NCBI RefSeq assembly: GCF_001548275.1
Contig: NZ_AP014945.1
Location: 1,410,001-1,442,000 of the forward strand
Source: Caldimicrobium thiodismutans
Lineage (GTDB): Bacteria; Desulfobacterota; Thermodesulfobacteria; Thermodesulfobacteriales; Thermodesulfobacteriaceae
DNA length: 32,000 nt
Direction of reading: 5' to 3'
The notes beneath the pieces are model-generated. The model had not been told where the DNA came from and ran no database searches. It was given only the letters and a program-made list of their open reading frames with translations. Both the position numbers and the translations under genes were made by a program. Shown one piece after another: positions 3,779-31,198 of the stretch (its first letter is position 1; every line of letters begins with the position of its first letter).

Positions 3779-4180
3779 ATGAATACTAATTTTAGTCCCA
3801 AGGAATTAACAGAAGCTGTAAGAGACATTTTTAGCGGGACCTTAGGGTATGAAATCAAGGAAAAAATTAGTTCTGAGATAATGGAGACCCTTGAGAAAAG
3901 ATTATCTGAACTTATGGAGAAAAAACTGAGATTAAATGAAGAGCGACTGAAGGTGTCAACTCTCCTTGAGAGAATTATTCGTGTGGAAGAGGAATTAAAG
4001 GCTTTAAGGGAGCTTGAAGAAAAGAGATTTGAAAGTTTGATGAGAGAGATGAATGCAAGATTTGAGGCTATGAATGTTAGATTTGAATCCCTTGAAAAGC
4101 GTATGAATTTTATGCAATGGTTGATAACAGCTGGCTTTGCCTTCTTAGGTGTCCTTTTAGCTCGACTCAAATTTTTATAA
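3779..4180 (+). CDS. Tail-anchored coiled-coil protein, short paralog (2 MNxRFEx heptads + C-terminal TM)
   Basis: SD GAGGGAGG lies 6-7 nt upstream of the ATG. Heptad-rich sequence ends in LEKRMNFMQWLITAGFAFLGVLLARLKFL. Homologous over its whole length to ORF 30512..31198. Confidence 0.75.
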   Translation: MNTNFSPKELTEAVRDIFSGTLGYEIKEKISSEIMETLEKRLSELMEKKLRLNEERLKVSTLLERIIRVEEELKALRELEEKRFESLMREMNARFEAMNVRFESLEKRMNFMQWLITAGFAFLGVLLARLKFL

Positions 4181-4298
4181 AGCTCTTCTATCGTTATAAT
4201 TCCTGAATTAAATCCCTTTCTGCATACACAATAATTCTTTACTTTAAAAAACTTATTTAAAATACAAGAGGCTTAAAAGGACTGAATGCAAACCCTTT

Positions 4299-4510
4299 TT
4301 TTGCATAGTTTCAGATCCTTACAAGAAAAAGGGTGGTAAAAGGTGAGAGAGGTGAAAATGTGAGAGGTGAGAGGAGGGGAAGCCCCTTGCGTGCCTGCCC
4401 CGTGTAGGGGTTCAAGATTTTGAACCCCTACATTGATGTAAAAAACACATAACAGGCAAACACATAGATTTTCCAAATGAGGACAAACACATAGGTTTGC
4501 CCCTACAAAA
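4299..4510. repeat. Copy A of a modular ~200-nt intergenic repeat element
   Basis: Shares these blocks with 11212..11401 in the same order and orientation: TTTTGCATA, GGTGGTAAAA(A)GGT, GAGAGGT(G/A)AGAGG purine tract, CTGCCCCGT, and the exact 19-mer ATAACAGGCAAACACATAG followed by GTTTG. Confidence 0.7.
4404..4431. other. Perfect hairpin (12-bp stem, 4-nt loop) inserted in repeat copy A
   Basis: GTAGGGGTTCAA-GATT-TTGAACCCCTAC read directly from the sequence. Absent from copy B. No U-tract follows on either strand. Confidence 0.9.
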
Positions 4511-4644
4511 TACAGGTTCATTTTCCTACAACCGAAGTAGGAGAAAATCTCCTTAAGTCTCAAAAGATATGAACTTATACAGTGCTTTGAAAAAGGAACT
4601 TTTGATTTAAAATTAATACAAAAAACTTTCCAGGGAGGAGAGAG

Positions 4645-6006
4645 ATGGAACATGTTTTTGATAAGCTTAAAGCAGAAGAAATAAAGGAGCTTGAGGGTCT
4701 TATTAAGAAATATCTTGATTTTTTATCCGAGATTAAGACAGAAAGAGAGTGTGTAGAGCAATTTAAAGAGGATTTGCTAAAAAAGGGGTTTCAAGAAAAA
4801 GCTCGGGATAAAGGCTTTTTTACCTATAGAAATAAGTTCCTTGCCTGCTGGAGAAGAGGTAAAAGACCACTTCAAGAAGGGTTAAAACTTATTATAAGTC
4901 ATATTGATACCCCGAGACTTGATTTAAAACTTCATCCCCTTTTTGAAGATCAGGACCTGGCATTTTTAAAGACCCACTATTATGGCGGAATAAAAAAATA
5001 TCATTGGGTAGCTATGCCTCTGGCTTTACATGGAGTGGTAGTAAAAAAGGATGGCTCAATAATTAATCTCGTGCTTGGAGAAAGGGAAGATGAGCCTTTG
5101 TTTACAATCTGTGATCTTCTGCCTCATCTGGGAAGAAAAAAACAAGAAGAAAAAAGGCTGGCTGAAGCTATCCCTGCTGAAAATTTAAATATACTCATAG
5201 GTGGAATTCCTATAGAAAAGAGCGGAAAGGGAAAAAAGGAGGAAAAAGAGCGTATTAAAAAAAGAATTTTAAAGCTTTTTGAGGAAAAATATGGTATAAG
5301 CGAGGAAGACTTCTTTTCAGCAGAGATTTTTGCTGTTCCTGCAGGAAGGGCAAGATTGGTTGGTTTGGATTCAGCCTTTGTGGGAGGCTACGGTCAGGAT
5401 GATCGCATCTGTGCCTTTACAAGTTTTCAAGCTCTGTTATCCATAGAAAAACCTTTATATACCACCCTTGTCCTCTTTATGGATAGGGAGGAAATAGGCT
5501 CAGAGGGAAATACCAGTGCCAAAAGTCGGATCTTTGAGAGCTTGGTCTATGAACTCATGAAAGCTGAAGAGTTATCCCCAACTCCAGATGTCTTTTTTGA
5601 AATTATGTCTAAAACTAAGGCCCTCTCAGCGGATGTTACCGCAGGGATTGATCCCAATTATCTTGAGGTTCACGACAAACTCAATGATGCCAAGCTTGGT
5701 TACGGGGTGGTTATAAGCCGTTACACTGGACATGGCGGTAAATATATGGCTAATGAAGCCCATGCTGAATATATAAGTTACCTGAGGTCCCTTTTTGAAA
5801 AGGAGGGGGTAGTCTACCAAGTGGCTTCTATGGGTAAAGTTGATGAAGGAGGAGGGGGAACAGTCTCCAAATATTTTGCCTCCTACGGGATGGATGTTGT
5901 TGATATAGGCCCACCACTTCTTTCCATGCACTCACCCTTTGAGATTGCCCACAAAGGAGACCTCTATATGACCTATCGGGCCTTTAAGGCCTTTTTGAAA
6001 GGTTAA
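4645..6006 (+). CDS. M18-family zinc aminopeptidase (aminopeptidase 1 / ApeA-like)
   Basis: SD GGGAGGAG upstream. KTERE near the N-terminus. ISHIDTPRLDLK, DREEIGSEG and SMHSPFE are typical M18 metal-ligand regions. 453 aa. Confidence 0.8.
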   Translation: MEHVFDKLKAEEIKELEGLIKKYLDFLSEIKTERECVEQFKEDLLKKGFQEKARDKGFFTYRNKFLACWRRGKRPLQEGLKLIISHIDTPRLDLKLHPLFEDQDLAFLKTHYYGGIKKYHWVAMPLALHGVVVKKDGSIINLVLGEREDEPLFTICDLLPHLGRKKQEEKRLAEAIPAENLNILIGGIPIEKSGKGKKEEKERIKKRILKLFEEKYGISEEDFFSAEIFAVPAGRARLVGLDSAFVGGYGQDDRICAFTSFQALLSIEKPLYTTLVLFMDREEIGSEGNTSAKSRIFESLVYELMKAEELSPTPDVFFEIMSKTKALSADVTAGIDPNYLEVHDKLNDAKLGYGVVISRYTGHGGKYMANEAHAEYISYLRSLFEKEGVVYQVASMGKVDEGGGGTVSKYFASYGMDVVDIGPPLLSMHSPFEIAHKGDLYMTYRAFKAFLKG

Positions 6007-6791: not shown

Positions 6792-7965
6792 GTATCTTGG
6801 AATAAAGTCTTTTCCGAGAGCCCTGGACAGAGGACTCAAGCAAAAAATCTTGAAGGCTTTTGAAATTTTAAATCTTCCTGCAAGGAATTTAACCCTTGTC
6901 TTCACAAATGATGTCGTAATAAGGGATTACAATCTTCAGTTTTTAAAGAGAGATTATCCAACGAATGTAATTTCTTTTAAAGGGGAAATGCCTGGTTATC
7001 TGGGGGATATTATAATCTCTGTTGAGAGGGCAAAGATTGAGGCCAAAACCTATGATCTCCCCCTGGAGGACTATCTTTTAATCCTTGCTCTGCACGGCCT
7101 TCTCCATCTTTTGGACTATGATCATGAGAAGGGTCTTTATAGCCCTTGGCTTATGCTTAAAAATGAAATAAAATTAGCTAAATATTTGTGTGAAAAAAAG
7201 GAAGAGATAGTTAGATTTTTGATGAGGAGGGAATATATGCCAGCCAAACTTGCCGTAAATGTAGATCATGTAGCCACCATTAGAGAAGCAAGAAAGACCT
7301 ATTATCCTGATCCTGTGCATGCAGCAGTTCTTGCTGAGCTTGGAGGGGCTGATGGAATAGTTGTGCACCTTAGGCTTGACAGAAGACATATTAAGGAAAG
7401 AGATGTTAGAATCATAAAAGAAATTATAAAAACCAAGCTTATTCTTGAGATGGCCATAGATAAAGATCTTGTGAAATTTGCAAAGGAGGTTAAACCCTAT
7501 CAGGTGACTCTTGTTCCAGAGAGAGTGGAAGAGGTTACCACTGAAGGAGGGATGGAACTTGAGGGTAGGGTAGAGGAGGTCAAAAAAGTAGTAAAAGAAC
7601 TCAATAAAGCAGGCATCAAGGTCAGTCTTTTTTTAAATCCCGATGAAAAAGCCTTAGAGCTTGGCCAAAAAACAGGGGCCCAAATTGTTGAGCTTCATAC
7701 AGGAATGTATGCTGAGGCTGAAGATGAAGAAAAGAGAATGGTTGAGTTTGAAAGACTTGAACGAGCTGCTCATCTTGCAAAAGACTTAGGATTTATAGTG
7801 CATGCTGGACACGGACTCAATTACGAAAATATAGGGCCAGTTGCAGCTATTCCTGAGATTGAAGAGTTTAGTATCGGCCATAGCATCATTGGAAGAGCTA
7901 TTTTTGTGGGTATGAAAGAGGCTGTTAAAGAAATGAAGAACCTAATTCTTAGGGCAAGAGGTTAA
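6775..7965 (+). CDS. ybeY-pdxJ: Single ORF fusing YbeY (rRNA maturation RNase, aa 1-~150) to PdxJ (pyridoxine 5'-phosphate synthase, aa 155-396)
   Basis: YbeY metal motif HGLLHLLDYDHE. PdxJ motifs LAVNVDHVATIREAR, VHLRLDRRHI, VELHTG and HAGHGLNY. No in-frame stop between them. An internal SD AGGAGGG (7225-7231) precedes ATG 7237. Confidence 0.8.
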   Translation: MAMKIEYLGIKSFPRALDRGLKQKILKAFEILNLPARNLTLVFTNDVVIRDYNLQFLKRDYPTNVISFKGEMPGYLGDIIISVERAKIEAKTYDLPLEDYLLILALHGLLHLLDYDHEKGLYSPWLMLKNEIKLAKYLCEKKEEIVRFLMRREYMPAKLAVNVDHVATIREARKTYYPDPVHAAVLAELGGADGIVVHLRLDRRHIKERDVRIIKEIIKTKLILEMAIDKDLVKFAKEVKPYQVTLVPERVEEVTTEGGMELEGRVEEVKKVVKELNKAGIKVSLFLNPDEKALELGQKTGAQIVELHTGMYAEAEDEEKRMVEFERLERAAHLAKDLGFIVHAGHGLNYENIGPVAAIPEIEEFSIGHSIIGRAIFVGMKEAVKEMKNLILRARG

Positions 7966-11026: not shown

Positions 11027-11211
11027 TTTTTTCCCCCTGAGGCATGGAATTGATAACTTCAATTAATATACCAGCAATCTTTGGAAAAGTCAAATAAAAA
11101 AGGGCAAAAAAATAAGAAGAAAATCTATTTTTTCCTTGATATTCCTTACTAAAATTCATTTTTTAAAATTTTTTTTTGAATTTTGTAAAAATCCATTCTT
11201 TCTCACTAACC

Positions 11212-11401
11212 TTTTGCATAAGTTCATACCCTTTCAAAAAAGAAAGGTGGTAAAAAGGTATAAAGGTGAGAGGTAAGAGGTGAGAGGAAGGAAAAAACCC
11301 ACACATGCATTTCATCAACAATGTTGGGGAAGCTTAGTATGTCTGCCCCGTAATGTAAAGGAACAGATAACAGGCAAACACATAGGTTTGTCCTTACCAA
11401 A
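11212..11401. repeat. Copy B of the modular intergenic repeat element
   Basis: Same ordered blocks as 4299..4510. It lacks the 28-nt hairpin and the internal CAAACACATAG duplication of copy A, and carries a different central insert (~11296-11340). Confidence 0.7.
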
Positions 11402-11540
11402 CCAAGAGGTTTAAAAAATTTATACAGGGAAGGCTTTAAAATTTTGGATAAAAGGATAATCCTCTTTATTGGCTAAAAAGGGAGATTTATTACCAAAGAA
11501 GCAGATTTAAGTTGTAAAGATATAGATGCAACCTAACCTC

Positions 11541-11568
11541 TTGTCCATTTTTTTATAGTTTATATAAT
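11541..11568 (+). promoter_or_regulatory. Sigma-70-type promoter directly abutting polX
   Basis: TTGTCC (11541-46), 16-nt spacer, TATAAT (11563-68). The ATG at 11578 is only 9 nt past the -10 box and has no SD. Confidence 0.4.
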
Positions 11569-11577
11569 ACATAGCAT

Positions 11578-13297: not shown

Positions 13298-15775
13298 ATG
13301 TTTTACTTATTACAATTACCCATAAAAAATTTTCTCAAAGACACAGAGATCTTAACTCCCCCCATTGATATAACCCTTAAGGATTTGCTAAAGCTTTTTC
13401 AGAAATATGAAAGAAATTTTGCTGTTTTTATTAAAGACAGCAAACCTGTGGGGATAATTACTGAGCGAGATGTTTTAAAAGCTCTCCATGAAAAATATTC
13501 ATTAGATACTCCTGCTTTTCATTTAGCCAAAAGAGAGCTTTTTAAAATTAAAAGCAAGGATACCCTTTTTAATGCCTTTAATATCATGACTGAGAATTTT
13601 ATTAGAAGACTTATAGTTGTAAATGATAAAGGGGAGTTTGAAGGAGTTATAACTCAGCAGGATCTTATTCTTCACTCTTCAGCTGAACTTTTTAAGGGAG
13701 AAGGGAAAATCCGTGATCTTCTTGAGATGAAGGATAAACTTATTTATGCTGAAGAGTCTGATACTTTAGATATAGCTCTTTCAAAGATGGTCCAGCACAA
13801 TGTGGGATCCCTTCCTATTTTGGATGCCAGCTTAAGACCCATTGGAATAATTACAGAAAAGGATTTTTTAACCCTTGATTCTGATAATTTAAAAACCCCT
13901 CTTAAAGAGGTAGCGCTCAAAAAGGTTTTTACAGTAGGTATAAAAGATCCAATTATAAAAGGGATTGACCTTTTTAAGAAATATAATATCAGACATTTAG
14001 TGGTAGTGGATGATGAGGGAAGAGCTCTCGGGGTTTTATCTCAAAGGGATTTTGTGCAAAGTCTTACCTGCACTTATGCTGATTTTCTTGAAAGCAATCT
14101 CAAACAAGCTAAAAGCTTTATTTCCCTATTACCTGAGATTGTGCTTGAGCTTTCTGAATGTGATAGTGAATGTAGGATTACCTGGATGAACGATTTTGCC
14201 AAGAAAAATCTTGGGGAAAAATATGTAGAAAGAGATATATACACCCTTATTGATTTTGATGATTGGAATAGGGTTTATGGACTCTTAAAAAGAGAAAAAA
14301 TGATATATAAAGAAAAGATAAAGGGACAAGATGGGAAAATTTATGAGGTCACTGGCACTTATCTTGATTTTGGAATAAAAGAAGGCAAAATAAAGCTTTT
14401 TTTAAGAGATATTACCTATGAGTTTATCAAAGAGGAGAATTATCAAAGGGAAATCCGCTTTTTAAAGAGTTTTCTTGATAATTCTCTTGATTATATCTTT
14501 GTCATAGATAAAGATGGAAGAATTCGTTTTGCCAATACTGCCTTTAAAAAGGCACTGGGGTTTTCGGATGAGGAGATTAAAAATAGAACCATTTTTGATA
14601 TTGTAGATTTATCAGAAGAGGATTTGAGAAAAAATATGGAGCTCCTTATTAAAAAGGGAGTAGAAATTAAGGGAAGAAGGTTTTACAGGGATATTAATCA
14701 AAATCTTATTCCTGTTGAGATTAAGGCCAAGGCAGTTATTCTAAATGGAGATTTTTATATCATTATAAATGCCAGGGATATAAAAGAAGGCTTAGAGTAT
14801 GAGAGGGCTCTTCAGGAGCGTTATCTAATCCTTTCGTCCTTTTATGCCTTTGCTAACTCTCTTAATTATGCCAGAACTGAAGAAGAGCTTTTTCAAGTTA
14901 TAGAAAAGTTTTTATTAGAAAAAGTAGATACCTTTCACTATTTTGAAGTTGATAGTCAAACAGAGGAGATAAAAACTACCTACCTTGCGGGGAAAAAGGA
15001 ATACTGGAATGATTGCTTAAGTAGAGAGGCCAAGGAGTGCAGAGTTTATATAACAGGTAAGAGCTTTTTGGGTAAAGATGAGCATTTTTGTTCTCGCTTG
15101 AAAAGGCCTGATCTTCCTCACTTTTGTATTCCTCTTATTTTTGAAGGGCGTGTTCAGGGAGTTTTAACTTTAATAAGAGAAAAACCTTTTACAGAGGAAG
15201 AGCTCAAATTCCTGGAAGATAAGGTTCAGATCTTTAATATTTATTTAAATCAGATGAAATTAATAAAAGAATATAGAGAGCTTTCCATAAGGGACCCACT
15301 CCTGGGGATTTATAACCGGAGATTTCTTATTGAGATGCTTAAAAAGGAGGAGAAAAAGGCCAAAAGAACCGGAAAACCTTTCAGTATCATCCTTGCAGAT
15401 TTAGATCACTTTAAGAAAATAAATGATACTTATGGCCATTTTGTGGGGGATAGAATTTTAAAGGAGTTTTCTGACCTTGTAGGCTCTCTTATAAGAGGTA
15501 TGGATTATTTTGCCAGGTTTGGAGGTGAAGAATTTTTGATAATGCTTCCTGAAATTTCTAAGGATAGTGCAGTCTTAGTGGCAGAAAGGATAAGAAAGGC
15601 TCTTGAGAAGCATGAAATTTTAATTTCAGAAGGCCAAACTATTAAACTAACCGCTTCCTTTGGTGTGGCCGAATATCCTGCAGATGCCCTTAATTACGAA
15701 GGACTTATCAAAAAAGCGGATACAAGGCTTTATCAGGCCAAGGCTGAAGGTAGAAACCGAGTTGTTTTCAAATAA
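13298..15775 (+). CDS. Multidomain diguanylate cyclase: 4x CBS - PAS - GAF-like - GGDEF
   Basis: Repeated CBS signatures (GIITERDVL, GVITQQDL, GIITEKDF, GVLSQRDF). PAS region (SLDYIFVIDKDGRIRFAN). Active site RFGGEEF with the I-site RGMD five residues upstream. 825 aa. Confidence 0.9.
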   Translation: MFYLLQLPIKNFLKDTEILTPPIDITLKDLLKLFQKYERNFAVFIKDSKPVGIITERDVLKALHEKYSLDTPAFHLAKRELFKIKSKDTLFNAFNIMTENFIRRLIVVNDKGEFEGVITQQDLILHSSAELFKGEGKIRDLLEMKDKLIYAEESDTLDIALSKMVQHNVGSLPILDASLRPIGIITEKDFLTLDSDNLKTPLKEVALKKVFTVGIKDPIIKGIDLFKKYNIRHLVVVDDEGRALGVLSQRDFVQSLTCTYADFLESNLKQAKSFISLLPEIVLELSECDSECRITWMNDFAKKNLGEKYVERDIYTLIDFDDWNRVYGLLKREKMIYKEKIKGQDGKIYEVTGTYLDFGIKEGKIKLFLRDITYEFIKEENYQREIRFLKSFLDNSLDYIFVIDKDGRIRFANTAFKKALGFSDEEIKNRTIFDIVDLSEEDLRKNMELLIKKGVEIKGRRFYRDINQNLIPVEIKAKAVILNGDFYIIINARDIKEGLEYERALQERYLILSSFYAFANSLNYARTEEELFQVIEKFLLEKVDTFHYFEVDSQTEEIKTTYLAGKKEYWNDCLSREAKECRVYITGKSFLGKDEHFCSRLKRPDLPHFCIPLIFEGRVQGVLTLIREKPFTEEELKFLEDKVQIFNIYLNQMKLIKEYRELSIRDPLLGIYNRRFLIEMLKKEEKKAKRTGKPFSIILADLDHFKKINDTYGHFVGDRILKEFSDLVGSLIRGMDYFARFGGEEFLIMLPEISKDSAVLVAERIRKALEKHEILISEGQTIKLTASFGVAEYPADALNYEGLIKKADTRLYQAKAEGRNRVVFK

Positions 15776-26818: not shown

Positions 26819-29233
26819 TTATACATCAAGCTCTCTATATTCCAAGGCATGTTCATAGATAAATTCTTTACGGGGCTCCACATTTTCCCCCATAAGCACA
26901 GAGAACATCTCATCTGCCTTTTCTGCATCCTGAATAGTTACCCTTTTAAGGATTCTCTTTTGGGGATCCATGGTGGTTTCCCAGAGTTGCTGAGAGTTCA
27001 TTTCCCCAAGGCCTTTATATCTCTGAATGTAAAGCCCCTTTCTTCCTTCTTCCCGTAAAAAGGTAAGAATTTCCGTTAAGTGGAGGAGAAAGTCAGAAAA
27101 TACTTTTTGGGTCTCCTTTAATTTAATTTCAAGGTCAAGCCCTGCGTAATCTCTCAGAGTATCAAATATTCTTGAGGCCTCTCTATAGTCTTTCTCTAAA
27201 ATTAATTCAGGCCCAATTTTACAAAAGCTATAGGTGTCCCCCTGGGAATAAAGGTAAAATTCAAAGTATTTGGGATTATAGGTGCTACTTTTGACCCTGG
27301 AAATTTTGAAGTTTAAGGCCTTGGCAGATTGAGAAAGTTTTTCAACTACTTCTTCAGACTCAAAATCTGTCAGGGCCTTTATGTTTTCTTTGAGAAGCAG
27401 TAAAACCACCTTGGGGGGATAATTTTTCTTGGTAAGATTGAGGAGATTTTTTTCCAGATGGGACAGATTTTGAAAAAATTTGATAGGCTCTTTGATTTCA
27501 CTGATAGGACTTCCCTCCTTTTTGACTAAAACCTTCAAATCTCCCAGAATTCTTTTAAAAATATATCTATCCAGTTCTTCGTCATTTTTGATATAGGTCT
27601 CTTTTTTTCCTTCGGCTACTCTGTAAAGAGGAGGTTGAGCAATGTAAAGCCAGCCCCTTTCAATAATTTCAGGCATCTGGCGATAGAAAAAAGTCAAAAG
27701 CAGGGTGCGAATATGAGCTCCATCTACATCGGCATCGGTCATAAGGATGATCTTATGATATTTACAGCGATCTGCATTAAAGCTATCAGGGCCAATGCCT
27801 GTTCCAAGGCTTGCAATGAGGCTTTTTATTTCCTCTGAGGCAAGCATCTTTTCAAAATTGGCCTTTTCCACATTAAGGATTTTTCCTCGCAGAGGCAGTA
27901 TAGCCTGAAATTTTCTATCTCTTGCCTGTTTGGCCGAGCCTCCAGCTGAGTCTCCTTCAACTATAAAAAGTTCTCTGTTTTCTGGGGTCCTTTCAGTGCA
28001 GTCAGCCAGTTTACCAGCTGTAAGAAATTCTTCAATCTCACTCTTTTTTCTAACAAGTTCTTTGGCTTTACGGGAGGCCTCTCTGGCCTTAGCAGAAGTA
28101 ATAACCTTTTGAAGAATCTTTTTGGCCTCTCCTGGATTTTCTTCAAAAAATTTAAGGAGTCCTTCATAAACGAGGGATTCAACAAGGGGTTTGACCTCGC
28201 TATTTCCTAATTTCATTTTGGTCTGTCCTTCAAACTGAGGCTCTGGCACTTTCAGGGAGATAACTGCAGTTAGGCCCTCACGAACATCTTCTCCCTCAAC
28301 TTTGATTTTGAATTGCTTAGGGAGTTTTTCTGAGTCAAGATATCTATTTACAGCTTTAGTAAGGGCAGCTCTAAAACCAACCACATGGGTTCCACCTTCT
28401 TTGGTATGAATGTTATTTACATAGCTGTAAATGGTTTCGGTATATCCTGAGTTATATTGAAGGGCAACCTCAACAACAATATTGTCCTTTTCCCCGGAGA
28501 TGGTAATAACTTTATTGTGAAGGGCTTCTTTTTTTTGATTTAGTGCCTTGACAAGTTCTGCAATCCCCCCTTTATAGTGAAACTTTTCAGCATACCCAAT
28601 CCGTTCATCCATGAGGTAAAATTTTACCTGGGGATTTAAATAAGCAAGTTCTTTTATCCTTTTGGAGACAATCTCTAAGTCAAATTCAAGATTACTTCCA
28701 AAGATCTCCGGATCTGGTTTAAAGCAAACCTTGGTTCCGTGCTTTGAGGTCTGACCAATGGTTGTAACTACTCCGTCAGGGACACCTCTTTTGTAACTCT
28801 GAAAGTAAATTTTTCCATCTCTATAGACCTCGGCTTTTAACCATTCGGAAAGGGCATTAACAACAGAAACCCCTACTCCGTGAAGCCCACCTGAAACTTT
28901 GTAGGCCCCGTGGTCAAACTTAGCCCCAGCATGAAGCCTTGTCATAACTATTTCTAAGGCTGAGATACCCTCTTCAGGATGGATATCAACGGGGATCCCT
29001 CTTCCATTGTCCTCTACACAGGCAGACCCATCTTTGTTAAGGCTTACCTTTATTTCTGAAGCATATCCAGCTAAGGCTTCATCAACAGCATTATCAAGCA
29101 CTTCCCAGAGAAGGTGGTGAAACCCATAAATGTCCGTTGAACCTATATACATAGCAGGCCTGACTCTAACTCCTTCAAGGCCTGTTAAAACCTTTATACT
29201 TTCAGCTTCATATCTTTCCATGAAAGACTTCAC
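26819..29233 (-). CDS. gyrB: DNA gyrase subunit B
   Basis: GHKL ATPase motifs (VLDNAVDEA, GLHGVGVSVVNALS). Toprim EGDSAGGSAKQARDR, PLRGKILNVEKA, DADVDGAHIRTLLLTFF. 804 aa. Confidence 0.95.
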   Translation of the reverse strand: MKSFMERYEAESIKVLTGLEGVRVRPAMYIGSTDIYGFHHLLWEVLDNAVDEALAGYASEIKVSLNKDGSACVEDNGRGIPVDIHPEEGISALEIVMTRLHAGAKFDHGAYKVSGGLHGVGVSVVNALSEWLKAEVYRDGKIYFQSYKRGVPDGVVTTIGQTSKHGTKVCFKPDPEIFGSNLEFDLEIVSKRIKELAYLNPQVKFYLMDERIGYAEKFHYKGGIAELVKALNQKKEALHNKVITISGEKDNIVVEVALQYNSGYTETIYSYVNNIHTKEGGTHVVGFRAALTKAVNRYLDSEKLPKQFKIKVEGEDVREGLTAVISLKVPEPQFEGQTKMKLGNSEVKPLVESLVYEGLLKFFEENPGEAKKILQKVITSAKAREASRKAKELVRKKSEIEEFLTAGKLADCTERTPENRELFIVEGDSAGGSAKQARDRKFQAILPLRGKILNVEKANFEKMLASEEIKSLIASLGTGIGPDSFNADRCKYHKIILMTDADVDGAHIRTLLLTFFYRQMPEIIERGWLYIAQPPLYRVAEGKKETYIKNDEELDRYIFKRILGDLKVLVKKEGSPISEIKEPIKFFQNLSHLEKNLLNLTKKNYPPKVVLLLLKENIKALTDFESEEVVEKLSQSAKALNFKISRVKSSTYNPKYFEFYLYSQGDTYSFCKIGPELILEKDYREASRIFDTLRDYAGLDLEIKLKETQKVFSDFLLHLTEILTFLREEGRKGLYIQRYKGLGEMNSQQLWETTMDPQKRILKRVTIQDAEKADEMFSVLMGENVEPRKEFIYEHALEYRELDV

Positions 29234-29256
29234 CCCTTGAAGATTTTTGTTCAGGT

Positions 29257-30378
29257 CTAAATTACCATAGGCATAAGAAGATAAAGGAAACCCTCATCTC
29301 GAAAGCCTGTTATCAGGGCAGGGGATCTCTCATCATTAATTTTTACCTCAACTTCTTCGGACTTCATATTCTCCAAGGCTGAGATAAGATAGACAGCATT
29401 GAAACTTATAGTTAAAGGAGAACCTTCATATTCTGCACTAAGCCTAATCCTTGCTCTGGAGGTATCTCCCTCAGGGGAGGAGATGGTGATTTCGGAAGAA
29501 GTAAGACTTAAGCGGATAGGTTTGAATTTTTCAGAGATTACATTGGAGGCTCTTTTGCAGGCATCCAGAAAGAGTTTTCTATCAATTTTGAGTTTATTTT
29601 GAAAATCCTGGGGTATAACCGCCCTATAATCTGGAAAGGAGCCTTCAATGGTTCTGGTAAAGAAAAAGCCATCGCTAAAAAAGAGCACAACATAGTTATT
29701 AACAAAGCCAAATTTGACTATAAGCTCCTCCTCGGAAAGATCAGCCATCATATCAGCCCCTTTTTTGCTGATGATGAATCCTTCTTTAAGCGAGGAGCTA
29801 TCAAGCCCGAGAACCTCTCTGTCCAAAAGGGCAAGTCTGTGTCCGTCTGAGGCAACAGCCCGAAGAACTCCTTTTTCTCGCATAGGTTCAAGATAGATCC
29901 CTCCCAGGACAAATCTGGCCTCATCCTTTGAGGCTGAAAAGATGGTGCTTCTAATAAGTTCAGTTAGGACCTTTCCAGGAATTTCAAGGAGATTTTCTTC
30001 ATAAAATTCAGGGAGACTTGGAAATTCTTCACTATCCATGACTGAAAGCTCGTAGAGCTCCTTTTCTTCTTCATCTCTTATGATGAGACGAGAGTCCTCT
30101 TTAAGGAGATAGACCTCCTCTTCAGGAAAGTCTTTAATTATTTCAAGGAATCTTCGGCAGGGGACGCAAAAGGAGAGCCTTTCTCCTTCAATATCTGCAG
30201 GCACTCTTCCTCTGAAACCCTGTTCAAGGTCAGTTGTAGTGATATAGAGGGTTTTTTCTTCTGGTTCAAAGTTGAGAAGAGCCATTGAGAGAACAGCCAT
30301 GGAGGCCTTTTTATCAGCTACTCCATCTGCCCTTTTTAGAAGCTTTTCAAGGTGCGATTTGTCAAGTTTAGCCTGCAT
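29257..30378 (-). CDS. dnaN: DNA polymerase III beta sliding clamp
   Basis: 373 aa, three-domain length. Typical N-terminus (...L...L......VA.K....VL) and C-terminal LLMPM. Lies immediately upstream of gyrB. Confidence 0.85.
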   Translation of the reverse strand: MQAKLDKSHLEKLLKRADGVADKKASMAVLSMALLNFEPEEKTLYITTTDLEQGFRGRVPADIEGERLSFCVPCRRFLEIIKDFPEEEVYLLKEDSRLIIRDEEEKELYELSVMDSEEFPSLPEFYEENLLEIPGKVLTELIRSTIFSASKDEARFVLGGIYLEPMREKGVLRAVASDGHRLALLDREVLGLDSSSLKEGFIISKKGADMMADLSEEELIVKFGFVNNYVVLFFSDGFFFTRTIEGSFPDYRAVIPQDFQNKLKIDRKLFLDACKRASNVISEKFKPIRLSLTSSEITISSPEGDTSRARIRLSAEYEGSPLTISFNAVYLISALENMKSEEVEVKINDERSPALITGFRDEGFLYLLMPMVI

Positions 30379-30511: not shown

Positions 30512-31198
30512 ATGCAAGGCCCTAACCTTAGCTCTGAAGAGCTGAATGAGGCAATTAAAGGGGTTTTTCGGAGTAGTTTTGGGGAGGAATTCAAAGAAAG
30601 TATTAGCGCTGAGATATGGGCAAAACTTGAGGAAAAGTTTCTTGAATTTATGGAAAATAGGCTAAAGATAAGTGTTGAGCGACAAAAGGAGTTAACTCTT
30701 CTTGAGAGAATTGTTCGTGTGGAAGAGGAATTGAAGGCTTTAAGGGAGCTTGAAGAAAAGAGATTTGAAAGTTTGATGAGAGAGATGAATGCAAGATTTG
30801 AGGCTATGAATGAAAGGTTTGAGGCCTCACAGAAGGAGATGAACACCCGCTTTGAGGCTACGAATGCCAGATTTGAGGCTTTACAGAAGGATATGAACAC
30901 TCGCTTTGAGGCTTTACAGAAAGAAATGAATACTCGCTTTGAAGCTATGAATGCCAGATTTGAGGCTTTACAAATAGACATGAACACCCGCTTTGAGGCT
31001 ATGAATGCTAGATTTGAGGCTTTGCAGAGGGATATGAACAGCCGCTTTGAGGCTCTGCAGAAGGAGATGAATGCCCGCTTTGAGGCTATGAATGCCAGAT
31101 TTGAGGCTTTAGAAAAGCGGATGAATTTTATGCAATGGCTGATCACAGGGGGCTTTGCCTTCTTGGGGGTGCTTTTAGCCCTTCTTAAGTTTCTTTAA
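30512..31198 (+). CDS. Tail-anchored coiled-coil protein, long paralog (12 MNxRFEA heptads with six 4-residue inserts + C-terminal TM)
   Basis: SD GGAGGAAG upstream. The N-terminal 90 aa are homologous to ORF 3779..4180. Same C-terminal LEKRMNFMQWLITGGFAFLGVLLALLKFL. Confidence 0.8.
   Translation: MQGPNLSSEELNEAIKGVFRSSFGEEFKESISAEIWAKLEEKFLEFMENRLKISVERQKELTLLERIVRVEEELKALRELEEKRFESLMREMNARFEAMNERFEASQKEMNTRFEATNARFEALQKDMNTRFEALQKEMNTRFEAMNARFEALQIDMNTRFEAMNARFEALQRDMNSRFEALQKEMNARFEAMNARFEALEKRMNFMQWLITGGFAFLGVLLALLKFL
30785..31108 (+). repeat. In-frame tandem coding repeat (21-nt heptad units, 33/54-nt higher-order units)
   Basis: ATGAAyrCyCGCTTTGAGGCT-type units are visible directly and encode MNxRFEA x12, separated by SQKE/LQKD/LQKE/LQID/LQRD/LQKE. 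Confidence 0.9.

Follow-up and report, generated by a model that had tools for sequence, protein, structure and literature searches.

A probable BIME/REPIN-like mosaic repeat around a GTAG-tagged palindrome dimer in Caldimicrobium thiodismutans

Introduction

Repetitive extragenic palindromes (REPs) that carry a GTAG tag are palindromes of 20–40 bp with an unpaired GTAG at one end, and they have been found in >80 species from 8 phyla (PMC3733652). They lie mainly downstream of coding regions and are commonly paired, either head-to-head or tail-to-tail, across 20–100 bp of spacer DNA, which in head-to-head dimers is often conserved; certain families regularly occur inside other repeats, and individual copies can fall within genes (PMC3733652). 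Here we describe an intergenic, non-coding element of ~210–280 bp per copy that is present twice in a 32,000-nucleotide stretch of Caldimicrobium thiodismutans DNA (contig NZ_AP014945.1, positions 1,410,001 to 1,442,000 of the forward strand; hereafter "the window"). The element is probably a mosaic repeat built around such a dimer, resembling bacterial interspersed mosaic elements (BIMEs) and the REP doublets known as REPINs.

REPINs are reportedly mobilised by REP-associated tyrosine transposases (RAYTs), in work attributed to Nunvar in 2010, to Bertels and Rainey in 2011 and to Di Nocera in 2013. Binding of IHF or gyrase is known for BIMEs, and the pneumococcal BOX element is a modular repeat comparable in its mosaic build. 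RAYTs are the presumed agents of REP mobility, and the recombinant Escherichia coli enzyme has been found to bind REP DNA in single-stranded form and to cleave it at GTAG; in addition, transcribed REPs have been reported to act as RNA elements (PMC3733652). A first-pass annotation of the window had noted a ~200-nt unit at 4299–4510 with a second copy elsewhere, and had offered a small RNA (sRNA) gene family, a repeat like the miniature inverted-repeat transposable elements (MITEs) or a shared cis-regulatory leader as explanations.

Results

The two copies, A and B, are located in the two longest intergenic regions of the window (4181–4644 and 11063–11577), on the same strand and with identical block order. 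All of the shared ordered blocks described by the first-pass annotation were present in both regions, and the gapped local alignment of these regions scored 123, compared with 25 ± 4 (maximum 45) in 300 shuffles. The 19-mer ATAACAGGCAAACACATAG occurred exactly at 4449–4467 and 11367–11385, and it had no match with ≤3 mismatches in 100 shuffles; the CTGCCCCGT block was found only at 4395 and 11343 (0.06 expected). Other strings were less informative, as TTTTGCATA was less specific (four occurrences on the + strand, two of them within genes) and GGTGGTAAAAGGT-like strings alone were close to chance. No homology was detected between the copies to the left of TGCATA, nor between the flanks of A and those of B. 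The right-hand homology extended to TAAGTCTCAAAAGATATGAACTTATACAG (4554–4582) in A and to ATTTATACAG (11418–11427) in B, and because this terminal block is present in both copies it belongs to the element. The limits were therefore extended to 4302–4582 for copy A and 11215–11427 for copy B, so that the ~200-nt unit at 4299–4510 proved to be real but longer than first noted.

Homologues of the M18 aminopeptidase encoded in the window assign the stretch to Caldimicrobium. Synteny with the window extended over both copies in two contigs of the same species, L003 (GCA_017880035.1) and L008 (from a Joint Genome Institute metagenome). The minus-strand open reading frame (ORF) that spans copy A (4273–4653) had no match in Pfam and is split into pieces of 25–47 aa in L003, and for these reasons it is non-coding, as had been suspected. 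Six-frame translations of the element, used as a chimeric query against 5.8 billion proteins, likewise gave no match. In 185,579 representative genomes, the 19-mer had two matches, in unrelated metagenome-assembled genomes, and both were judged to be due to chance.

The 19-mer and the GTTTGCCC block together make up a single hairpin, GGGGCAAAC-ACATAG-GTTTGCCCC followed by TAC, which has a stem of 7–9 bp and a loop of 6 nt. Its end, CCCCTAC, reads as GTAG on the other strand, so that the hairpin is a short palindrome with a GTAG tag at one end, and the tag is unpaired because its 5' complement is not conserved in the viral loci described below. In copy B, the 19-mer is directly followed by GTTTGCCC, as the first-pass annotation had stated for both copies, but in copy A a 27-nt duplication (4468–4494) lies between the two. 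The right units of A and of a third copy, C, end in CCCCTAC, and the right unit of B has GTAA. On the left, a second and more degenerate unit was recognized, with tags that read GTAG in copy A of L008 and in copy C, GGAG in copy A of the window, and GTTG in copy B.

The two units of each copy are inverted with their tags on the outside (A, 4373–4401 and 4481–4506; B, 11323–11349 and 11373–11397), and they are separated by a conserved dimer spacer of ~23 nt. From these alignments, the middle of the element reads as a head-to-head dimer of GTAG-tagged palindromes, of which the left unit has decayed and the right unit is intact. This is because the CTGCCCCGT block and the spacer (..AACAGATAACA) align with the left unit and the spacer of a phage contig, L009, in which a complete dimer, GTAGGGGCCGACCTATGTGTCTGCCCC-TTAACAGATAAAA-GGCGAACACACAGGTTCGCCCCTAC, is present at 7290–7357; both its units and its AACAGATAA spacer align with the window element.

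Copy C was found by a search for GTAGGGG in L008, where it lies at 4948–5184, and was confirmed with a profile of the three copies. The same profile revealed no further copy in the window or in the congeners. On its right side, a 2.37-kb segment of L008 (2817–5185) terminates in copy C; this segment is missing from L003, and its cargo consists of a Dam-like methylase, a 261-aa ORF and a 69-aa ORF, followed by copy C itself. The segment is flanked by 30-bp direct repeats, TCAAAAGATA(T/G)GGACTTATACAGGATCTTG, and was inserted immediately upstream of a tRNA-Asp gene (L008 5230–5307). At the equivalent position, L003 has an empty site with a single 30-bp repeat just upstream of tRNA-Asp (L003 5162–5191 versus L008 2793–5191). 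The end of copy A consists of TAAGTC plus the first 23 nt of this 30-bp repeat, of which copy B keeps TTATACAG. No recombinase or integrase is encoded in the L008 island, the window or the flanks. The 261-aa ORF is identical (100%) to THC_1411 of C. thiodismutans and has homologues with 66–81% identity in several phyla, as expected for mobile restriction-modification genes. In the genome from which the window was taken, the insertion is probably located just upstream of the window start. We also noted that the left junction of the insertion in L008 makes a TTGACA -35 box before the methylase gene.

Comparison of the three strains revealed considerable variation within the element. Copy B was 98–99% identical in all three except in its purine tract, which had 10 extra nt in L008 and a point change in L003. 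Copy A had flanks that were ~99% identical across strains and a divergent interior: the 27-nt duplication of the 5' half of the hairpin (4468–4494) was not at the same locus in L003 or L008, the purine tract was rearranged in L008, and one segment had been replaced, the window allele resembling copy B and the L003/L008 allele resembling copy C. This replacement looks like exchange between copies, to judge from the alignments. Because the purine tract is neither equally long nor identical in sequence from strain to strain, and because copy C has only a short version of it, it is a slippage-prone variable heptamer repeat and not a constrained motif, and the earlier suggestion that it serves as a decoy for ribosomes or for a GGA-binding protein is not supported.

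For comparison outside the species we used two congeners, L005/L006 (81% protein identity) and L007 (86%), and both retain the gene block from the aminopeptidase to the S11 peptidase. At site A, the aminopeptidase is preceded in each of them by a short stretch of unrelated DNA and by other genes than in the window, and the element is absent. At site B, L005 has unrelated DNA past the S11 peptidase gene, again without the element; the contig of L007 stops ~120 nt past that gene, so that the comparison at 86% covers site A only. From its absence in the congeners we conclude, on sequence comparison, that the element is not an old leader of either downstream gene. The genes downstream of the three copies are moreover unrelated (aminopeptidase, PolX and tRNA-Asp), and promoter-like sites near copy B are those of the flanking genes and lie outside the element, both of which speak against the shared cis-regulatory leader. 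In the window, the element sits where gene order has changed relative to the congeners.

The hairpin core was also found far outside Caldimicrobium. The 26-mer GGGCAAACACATAGGTTTGCCCCTAC, which is the form present in copy C, was identical in three unrelated viral contigs (47–64% GC), with one to three substitutions separating it from the versions in copies A and B. These viral contigs hold further hairpins with the compensatory stems GGCGAAC/GTTCGCC and GGCAGAC/GTCTGCC. A degenerate hairpin pattern, which fixed most positions, including the edges of the loop ACNYAG and the tag CCCCTAC, and left two stem pairs free, matched 101 IMG/VR stretches of 35–71% GC; both free pairs were Watson–Crick in 129 of 139 unique sites. 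Partners were observed around many of 141 viral sites: an inverted GTAGGGGC.. unit upstream with tags outside at 33, a tail-to-tail partner at 13, and a tandem one at 18. Most sites (117 of 155) were outside ORFs of at least 150 aa, many of them within 100 nt after a stop codon, and all three Caldimicrobium copies are intergenic, so that the location of the hairpin is predominantly extragenic. Among the viral loci only the dimer part was matched, with no match outside Caldimicrobium for the left module, the purine tract or the right terminal block. Few hairpin matches were found in GenBank phages and plasmids, and a literature search by hairpin sequence returned only unrelated papers, none of them on bacterial repeats.

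Some of the viral and plasmid loci had additional repeat structure around the hairpin. Three related viral contigs (L036, L040 and L048; e.g., L048 2560–2660 and 3150–3250) have GTGAGTT/GTGAGTA heptamers to the left of the hairpin and their complement to the right, which recalls the GGTGAGA tract of the window but concerns 4 of 141 sites only. In L011 (1078–1150), three 15-nt GGGCAGACACGC repeats are followed by a full hairpin, apparently in frame within an ORF, while L033 (11628–11726) has whole hairpin units with a 37-nt period and L049 has GGGCGAACACACAGGGCGAC repeated. Between recO and mutS2 of Vescimonas fastidiosa pMM35_01 (L110 2100–3200), a 1.1-kb intergenic region is full of GC-rich hairpins with differing stems, each ending in GCCCCTACGG (the same tag) and interleaved with other palindromes.

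Alignment of the three copies showed a common order of modules, as in mosaic repeats of the BIME type, with a left block, a purine heptamer tract and a right terminal block that C. thiodismutans adds around the dimer. The homology of the three copies starts in copy A with the left module TGCATAGTTTCAGATCCTTACAAGAAAAAG (4302–4331, + strand), followed by the purine tract of (G)GTGAGA-type heptamers (4332–4372, +), a variable-number tandem repeat that had been noted for its likeness to a Shine–Dalgarno (SD) sequence. The left REP unit, GGAGGGGAAGCCCCTTGCGTGCCTGCCCC (4373–4401), is inverted, degenerate and contains the CTGCCCCGT block; it is assigned to the minus strand, the strand on which a unit reads in the sense of the right unit (loop ACNYAG, 3' CCCCTAC). 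Better preserved left units are found in copy A of L008 and in copy C, which read GTAGGGGAAGCCCC..GTGTCTG(T/C)CC (also given as GTAGGGGAAGCCCC..GTGTCTGCCC) and match the canonical inverted viral units GTAGGGGC(A/C)GACCT(A/G)(T/C)GTGTCTGCCCC. Next comes a perfect 13-bp palindrome, TGTAGGGGTTCAA-GATT-TTGAACCCCTACA (4403–4432, no strand assigned), which occurs only in the window allele of A; it has GTAGGGG on both strands and stands in place of 23 unrelated nt in L003 and L008.

The dimer spacer of copy A (..ATGTAAAAAACACATAACA; 4433–4454, +) is conserved in A, B and C, and its AACAGATAA portion, in the reading of copy B, is also present in the spacer of the L009 phage dimer. The right REP unit (4455–4506, +) is duplicated, with a first part GGCAAACACATAGATTTTCC, the 27-nt duplication (4468–4494) and a second part GGACAAACACATAGGTTTGCCCCTAC (4481–4506), which differs from the 26-nt GGGCAAACACATAGGTTTGCCCCTAC of copy C and the viral contigs by one base, GGA for GGG. 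This unit holds the GTTTGCCC block and most of the 19-mer, which starts with six bases, ATAACA, that still belong to the end of the spacer. A variable right spacer (4507–4553, +), partly alignable with C and deleted in B, separates the dimer from the right terminal block, TAAGTC-TCAAAAGATATGAACTTATACAG (4554–4582, +), made up of 6 element-specific nt and the first 23 nt of the L008 direct repeat.

Copy B has the same arrangement. Its left module (11215–11245, +) was placed by alignment with A and C, and its purine heptamer tract (11246–11296, +) by repeat family D12 and by strain comparison. The left REP unit, GTTGGGGAAGCTTAGTATGTCTGCCCC (11323–11349, minus strand), is inverted and degenerate, contains the CTGCCCCGT block, and is equal in length to the L009 unit GTAGGGGCCGACCTATGTGTCTGCCCC, with which it shares both ends and 18 of 27 positions. 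The 23-nt dimer spacer GTAATGTAAAGGAACAGATAACA (11350–11372, +) aligned with those of A, C and L009, and the right REP unit GGCAAACACATAGGTTTGTCCTTAC (11373–11397, +) has one G.T stem pair and a degenerate tag (TTAC). Last is a remnant of the right terminal block, ATTTATACAG (11418–11427, +), as judged from the alignment with A and C.

Several short signals in and near the copies were considered. The four occurrences of TTTTGCATA (1258, 4299, 8197 and 11212; ~0.5 expected by chance) are all on the + strand, each after CC(Y)TTT, and two are in coding sequence; a sigma-54 promoter around this string was rejected, as the spacing of GG and GC was wrong in 4/4 occurrences. Copy A has at 4350–4363 a strong SD (AGGTGA), an ATG and then a TGA, a start-stop pair that is not kept in B, and the corresponding mini-ORF AGGTGAAAATGTGA was dropped since it is not conserved in B. 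A sigma-70 promoter in the left module was discarded in view of its poor -10 boxes and an empty promoter scan.

Elsewhere in the window, the genes at 3779–4180 and 30512–31198 (77–79% DNA identity) are paralogues that encode coiled-coil proteins, each anchored by a hydrophobic C-terminal segment. The longer of these has internal 141-nt (47-aa) repeats with a 54/54/33-nt substructure, and long ORFs are also present on the antisense strands. On the minus strand (26819–30378), gyrB adjoins dnaN; no dnaA lies beside dnaN, and the coiled-coil paralogue is upstream of dnaN. A replication origin may be located near gyrB-dnaN. A CBS-PAS-GAF-GGDEF protein of 825 aa is encoded in the window (13298–15775) and in L008, and the same gene is represented in L003 (18657–21133) by two overlapping ORFs (454 and 379 aa), likely as a result of a frameshift or an assembly error.

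Discussion

Our data favor, with reasonable though not high confidence, the reading of the element as a non-coding BIME/REPIN-like mosaic repeat around a GTAG-REP dimer, and it is probably selfish DNA. This reading is based on the anatomy, the pairing of the stem, the dimer, the at least three copies in the species, the variation between strains, the absence from the congeners and the insertion polymorphism. The features that can be compared with the published description of GTAG-tagged REPs, namely palindrome, tag, extragenic position, dimer and mosaic context, fit that description. By analogy with known REPs, we infer that the element is mobilised by a RAYT: the hairpins would be single-stranded DNA substrates for this trans-acting enzyme of the HUH/Y1 type, which would cut at the GTAG tag. 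The element itself would be non-autonomous and copied or moved in trans, the composite spreading or being carried along with its hairpins. Slippage of the heptamers, gain and loss of tagged palindromes and exchange between copies would then have diversified the copies. Effects on neighbouring genes, such as an RNA hairpin that stabilises or attenuates read-through transcripts, would be incidental.

Several observations weigh against this interpretation. GTAG-tagged REPs typically reach tens to hundreds of copies in one genome, and the loci seen here were three, in ~40 kb of C. thiodismutans DNA. No ORF with the HUH...Y..NP motifs of RAYT-like proteins was found by motif search in 1.06 Mb of fetched DNA, and Y1_Tnp had no match in the window. 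The conservation of loop and tag across the viral sites was partly built into the search pattern, so that the unbiased evidence is confined to the two free stem pairs, where the G.T and A.C exceptions were equally rare and gave no strand preference. The loop and tag are nearly invariant over 35–71% GC, often in phage-like contigs, which is unusual for REP families, as these are mostly lineage-specific; recognition by some other protein, or a function as RNA, might be the reason. Finally, two-thirds of the element (left module, purine tract and right block) is left unaccounted for by REP biology.

The alternative that survives best, and that we nevertheless regard as unlikely, is that the element is a cis-acting attachment (att)-type arm of an integrative cassette that lacks its own recombinase. 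A recombinase acting in trans would recombine the right block TCAAAAGATATGGACTTATACAGG with chromosomal sequences that resemble it, accessory binding would putatively fall to the REP-like repeats and heptamers, and a circular form of the cassette would be expected to have the junction TTATACAGGATCTTG joined to ACAATGACAG. Such a role would account for the 2.37-kb insertion of L008 between 30-bp repeats opposite an empty L003 site with one repeat, for the end of copy A in the same block plus 6 element-specific nt, for the TTATACAG kept by B, and for the position of both window copies where gene order differs from that of the congeners. Consistent with it are also the GTGTCTGCCC-type motif, which occurs three or four times per copy in both orientations, and the spread of the 261-aa cargo homologues (66–81% identity) over several phyla. 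However, the island, the window and the flanks lack a recombinase, and the single polymorphic insertion would give the same picture if it were a deletion between the 30-bp repeats. There was no left-end partner site for A at ≤5 mismatches, and the candidate for B was weak. Furthermore, the number of the supposed binding repeats varies between strains, and the hairpin is present alone, in many copies and in both orientations, in phage contigs.

We also considered, as a speculation of still lower probability, that the hairpin GGGGC-RR-ACAC-NY-AGGT-YY-GCCCC-TAC is a cross-phylum, phage-enriched structured element outside Rfam. Its conserved loop and tag would be read by one widespread protein, a phage- or host-borne HUH enzyme or another nuclease; alternatively, the hairpin would serve operons of phage structural genes as a signal at the RNA level. 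On this view the mosaic of Caldimicrobium descends from such an element, either by domestication or as a hitch-hiker, and would mark the insertion sites of gene cassettes.

Less probable again is a structured RNA, either an sRNA (for example one transcribed from the minus strand with a CU-rich anti-SD-like tract) or a hairpin in an untranslated region that affects stability, termination or translation. Folding of the minus strand was more stable than that of shuffled sequences (z = -4.7 for A, z = -2.3 for B), the stem of the hairpin covaries, many viral sites are just after stop codons or 13–60 nt before start codons, and REPs have been reported to act as RNA elements once transcribed (PMC3733652). 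Yet the window and the viral loci had no Rfam match at the gathering score and at E up to 10, and neither strand has a conserved promoter or intrinsic terminator. The promoter and terminator scan of copy A was empty, and the single terminator-like site of copy B, which spans the right REP hairpin on the minus strand, has no conserved equivalent in A; a hairpin close to where A begins on the left is likewise not shared by B. The long-range minus-strand stem, which pairs the 19-mer with CTGCCCC, showed no covariation in L009, the wobble pairs had no strand bias, and the orientation relative to genes was mixed. Indels of 10–35 nt between strains with 99% identical flanks also argue against an RNA, and together with the lack of an Rfam match and of conserved promoters and terminators they led us to set aside the sRNA gene family of the first-pass annotation. 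Any effect at the RNA level would be a by-product of the repeat.

That the two copies are the remnant of a local duplication, with no family, no activity and a decaying similarity, is highly improbable: it would suit the presence of only two copies in 32 kb, the degenerate left REP unit and B tags, the two chance-judged 19-mer matches and the empty six-frame protein search, but a third copy exists at an unrelated locus, alleles of copy A have exchanged segments resembling B or C, distantly related viral contigs carry the hairpin core unchanged, and neither copy has flanking homology. The dispersed structured element that the first-pass annotation had proposed is borne out by copy C of L008 and by the wide occurrence of the hairpin core elsewhere.

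A number of other candidates were rejected. A resemblance of GTGTCTGTCC..AATGTAAAG to E. coli transfer-messenger RNA (tmRNA) was unsupported by Rfam and ARAGORN and was dropped, ARAGORN finding no tRNA or tmRNA in the window. A DnaA-box cluster or origin based on the minus-strand TTTTACCACC was dismissed, as this string has several copies and there is no change of skew at 3.5–12.5 kb. The inner replacement in A, which could suggest a CRISPR-like array or a guide-bearing RNA, is explained by the GTAG-tagged palindrome and copy exchange. A palindromic operator of the LexA, CRP or parS type was discarded because the stem varies with compensation and the loop is conserved, and a promoter for a phage single-subunit RNA polymerase because of its poor alignment to T7-type consensus sequences. 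Integron attC sites and the CTTG target of the IS91 type had only partial resemblance; attC has R''/R' core sites, RYYYAAC ... GTTRRRY, at the site ends, and no such cores were seen at the element ends of A, B or C.

Neither of the two long intergenic regions should be annotated as an sRNA gene, nor should the two be taken for a common regulatory leader, and the strong SD-like tract is to be seen as a slippery repeat and not as a designed decoy. If the element is a mosaic repeat of the REP type, the finding adds Thermodesulfobacteriota to the phyla with GTAG-tagged REP dimers and provides a case in which the dimer is part of a larger mosaic, located where a restriction-modification insertion that varies between strains ends. 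Should the recurrence of the hairpin in phage contigs hold, it could help to find the enzyme that reads the hairpin and show by what route such repeats pass between lineages.

Comparison with known systems places the element nearest to the REP-derived repeats. With integrase-less integrative elements like CIMEs (cis-mobilizable elements) and with the att arms of tyrosine-recombinase elements it has in common its position within and at the end of a strain-specific insertion in L008, flanked by 30-bp repeats and near a tRNA gene, and its repeated short motifs; it differs in that no recombinase is known for it, the L008 insertion is upstream of the tRNA gene and not at its 3' end, copy B has no cargo, and the hairpins also occur independently. 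Like MITEs such as Correia/NEMIS, it is small, non-coding, dispersed, strain-polymorphic and without a transposase. A MITE-like repeat was indeed the closest of the three options that had been offered, but its left end (TGCATAG..) and its right end (..TTATACAG) do not form inverted repeats with each other, and no target-site duplication was recognisable flanking A or B. Enterobacterial BIMEs and modular repeats such as BOX are, like this element, dispersed intergenic mosaics of ordered modules, some variable in copy number, that include palindromic units; there is no sequence relationship to BIMEs or BOX, and what varies here is a microsatellite of purine heptamers and not a repeated box.

REPIN-RAYT systems include a RAYT gene in the same genome, typically with REPs on either side of it; no RAYT-like ORF was seen in the 1.06 Mb of fetched DNA. 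REPINs do not share the decayed left unit or the embedding of the dimer in ~150–200 nt of other conserved modules. Most REP families are lineage-specific, whereas the loop and tag described here are common to phage-like contigs of very different GC. On the other hand, the element has the short GC-rich stem-loop and the unpaired GTAG at one end of GTAG-tagged REPs and REPINs, and the inverted units with tags outside, conserved ~23-nt spacer and extragenic site of REPINs. It shares with both the heterodimers with different stems, the differences between strains and the occasional viral copies within genes. The element belongs to a kind that is already known but had not been described in this lineage; the only surprise is how widely, and in association with phages, the same hairpin is distributed.

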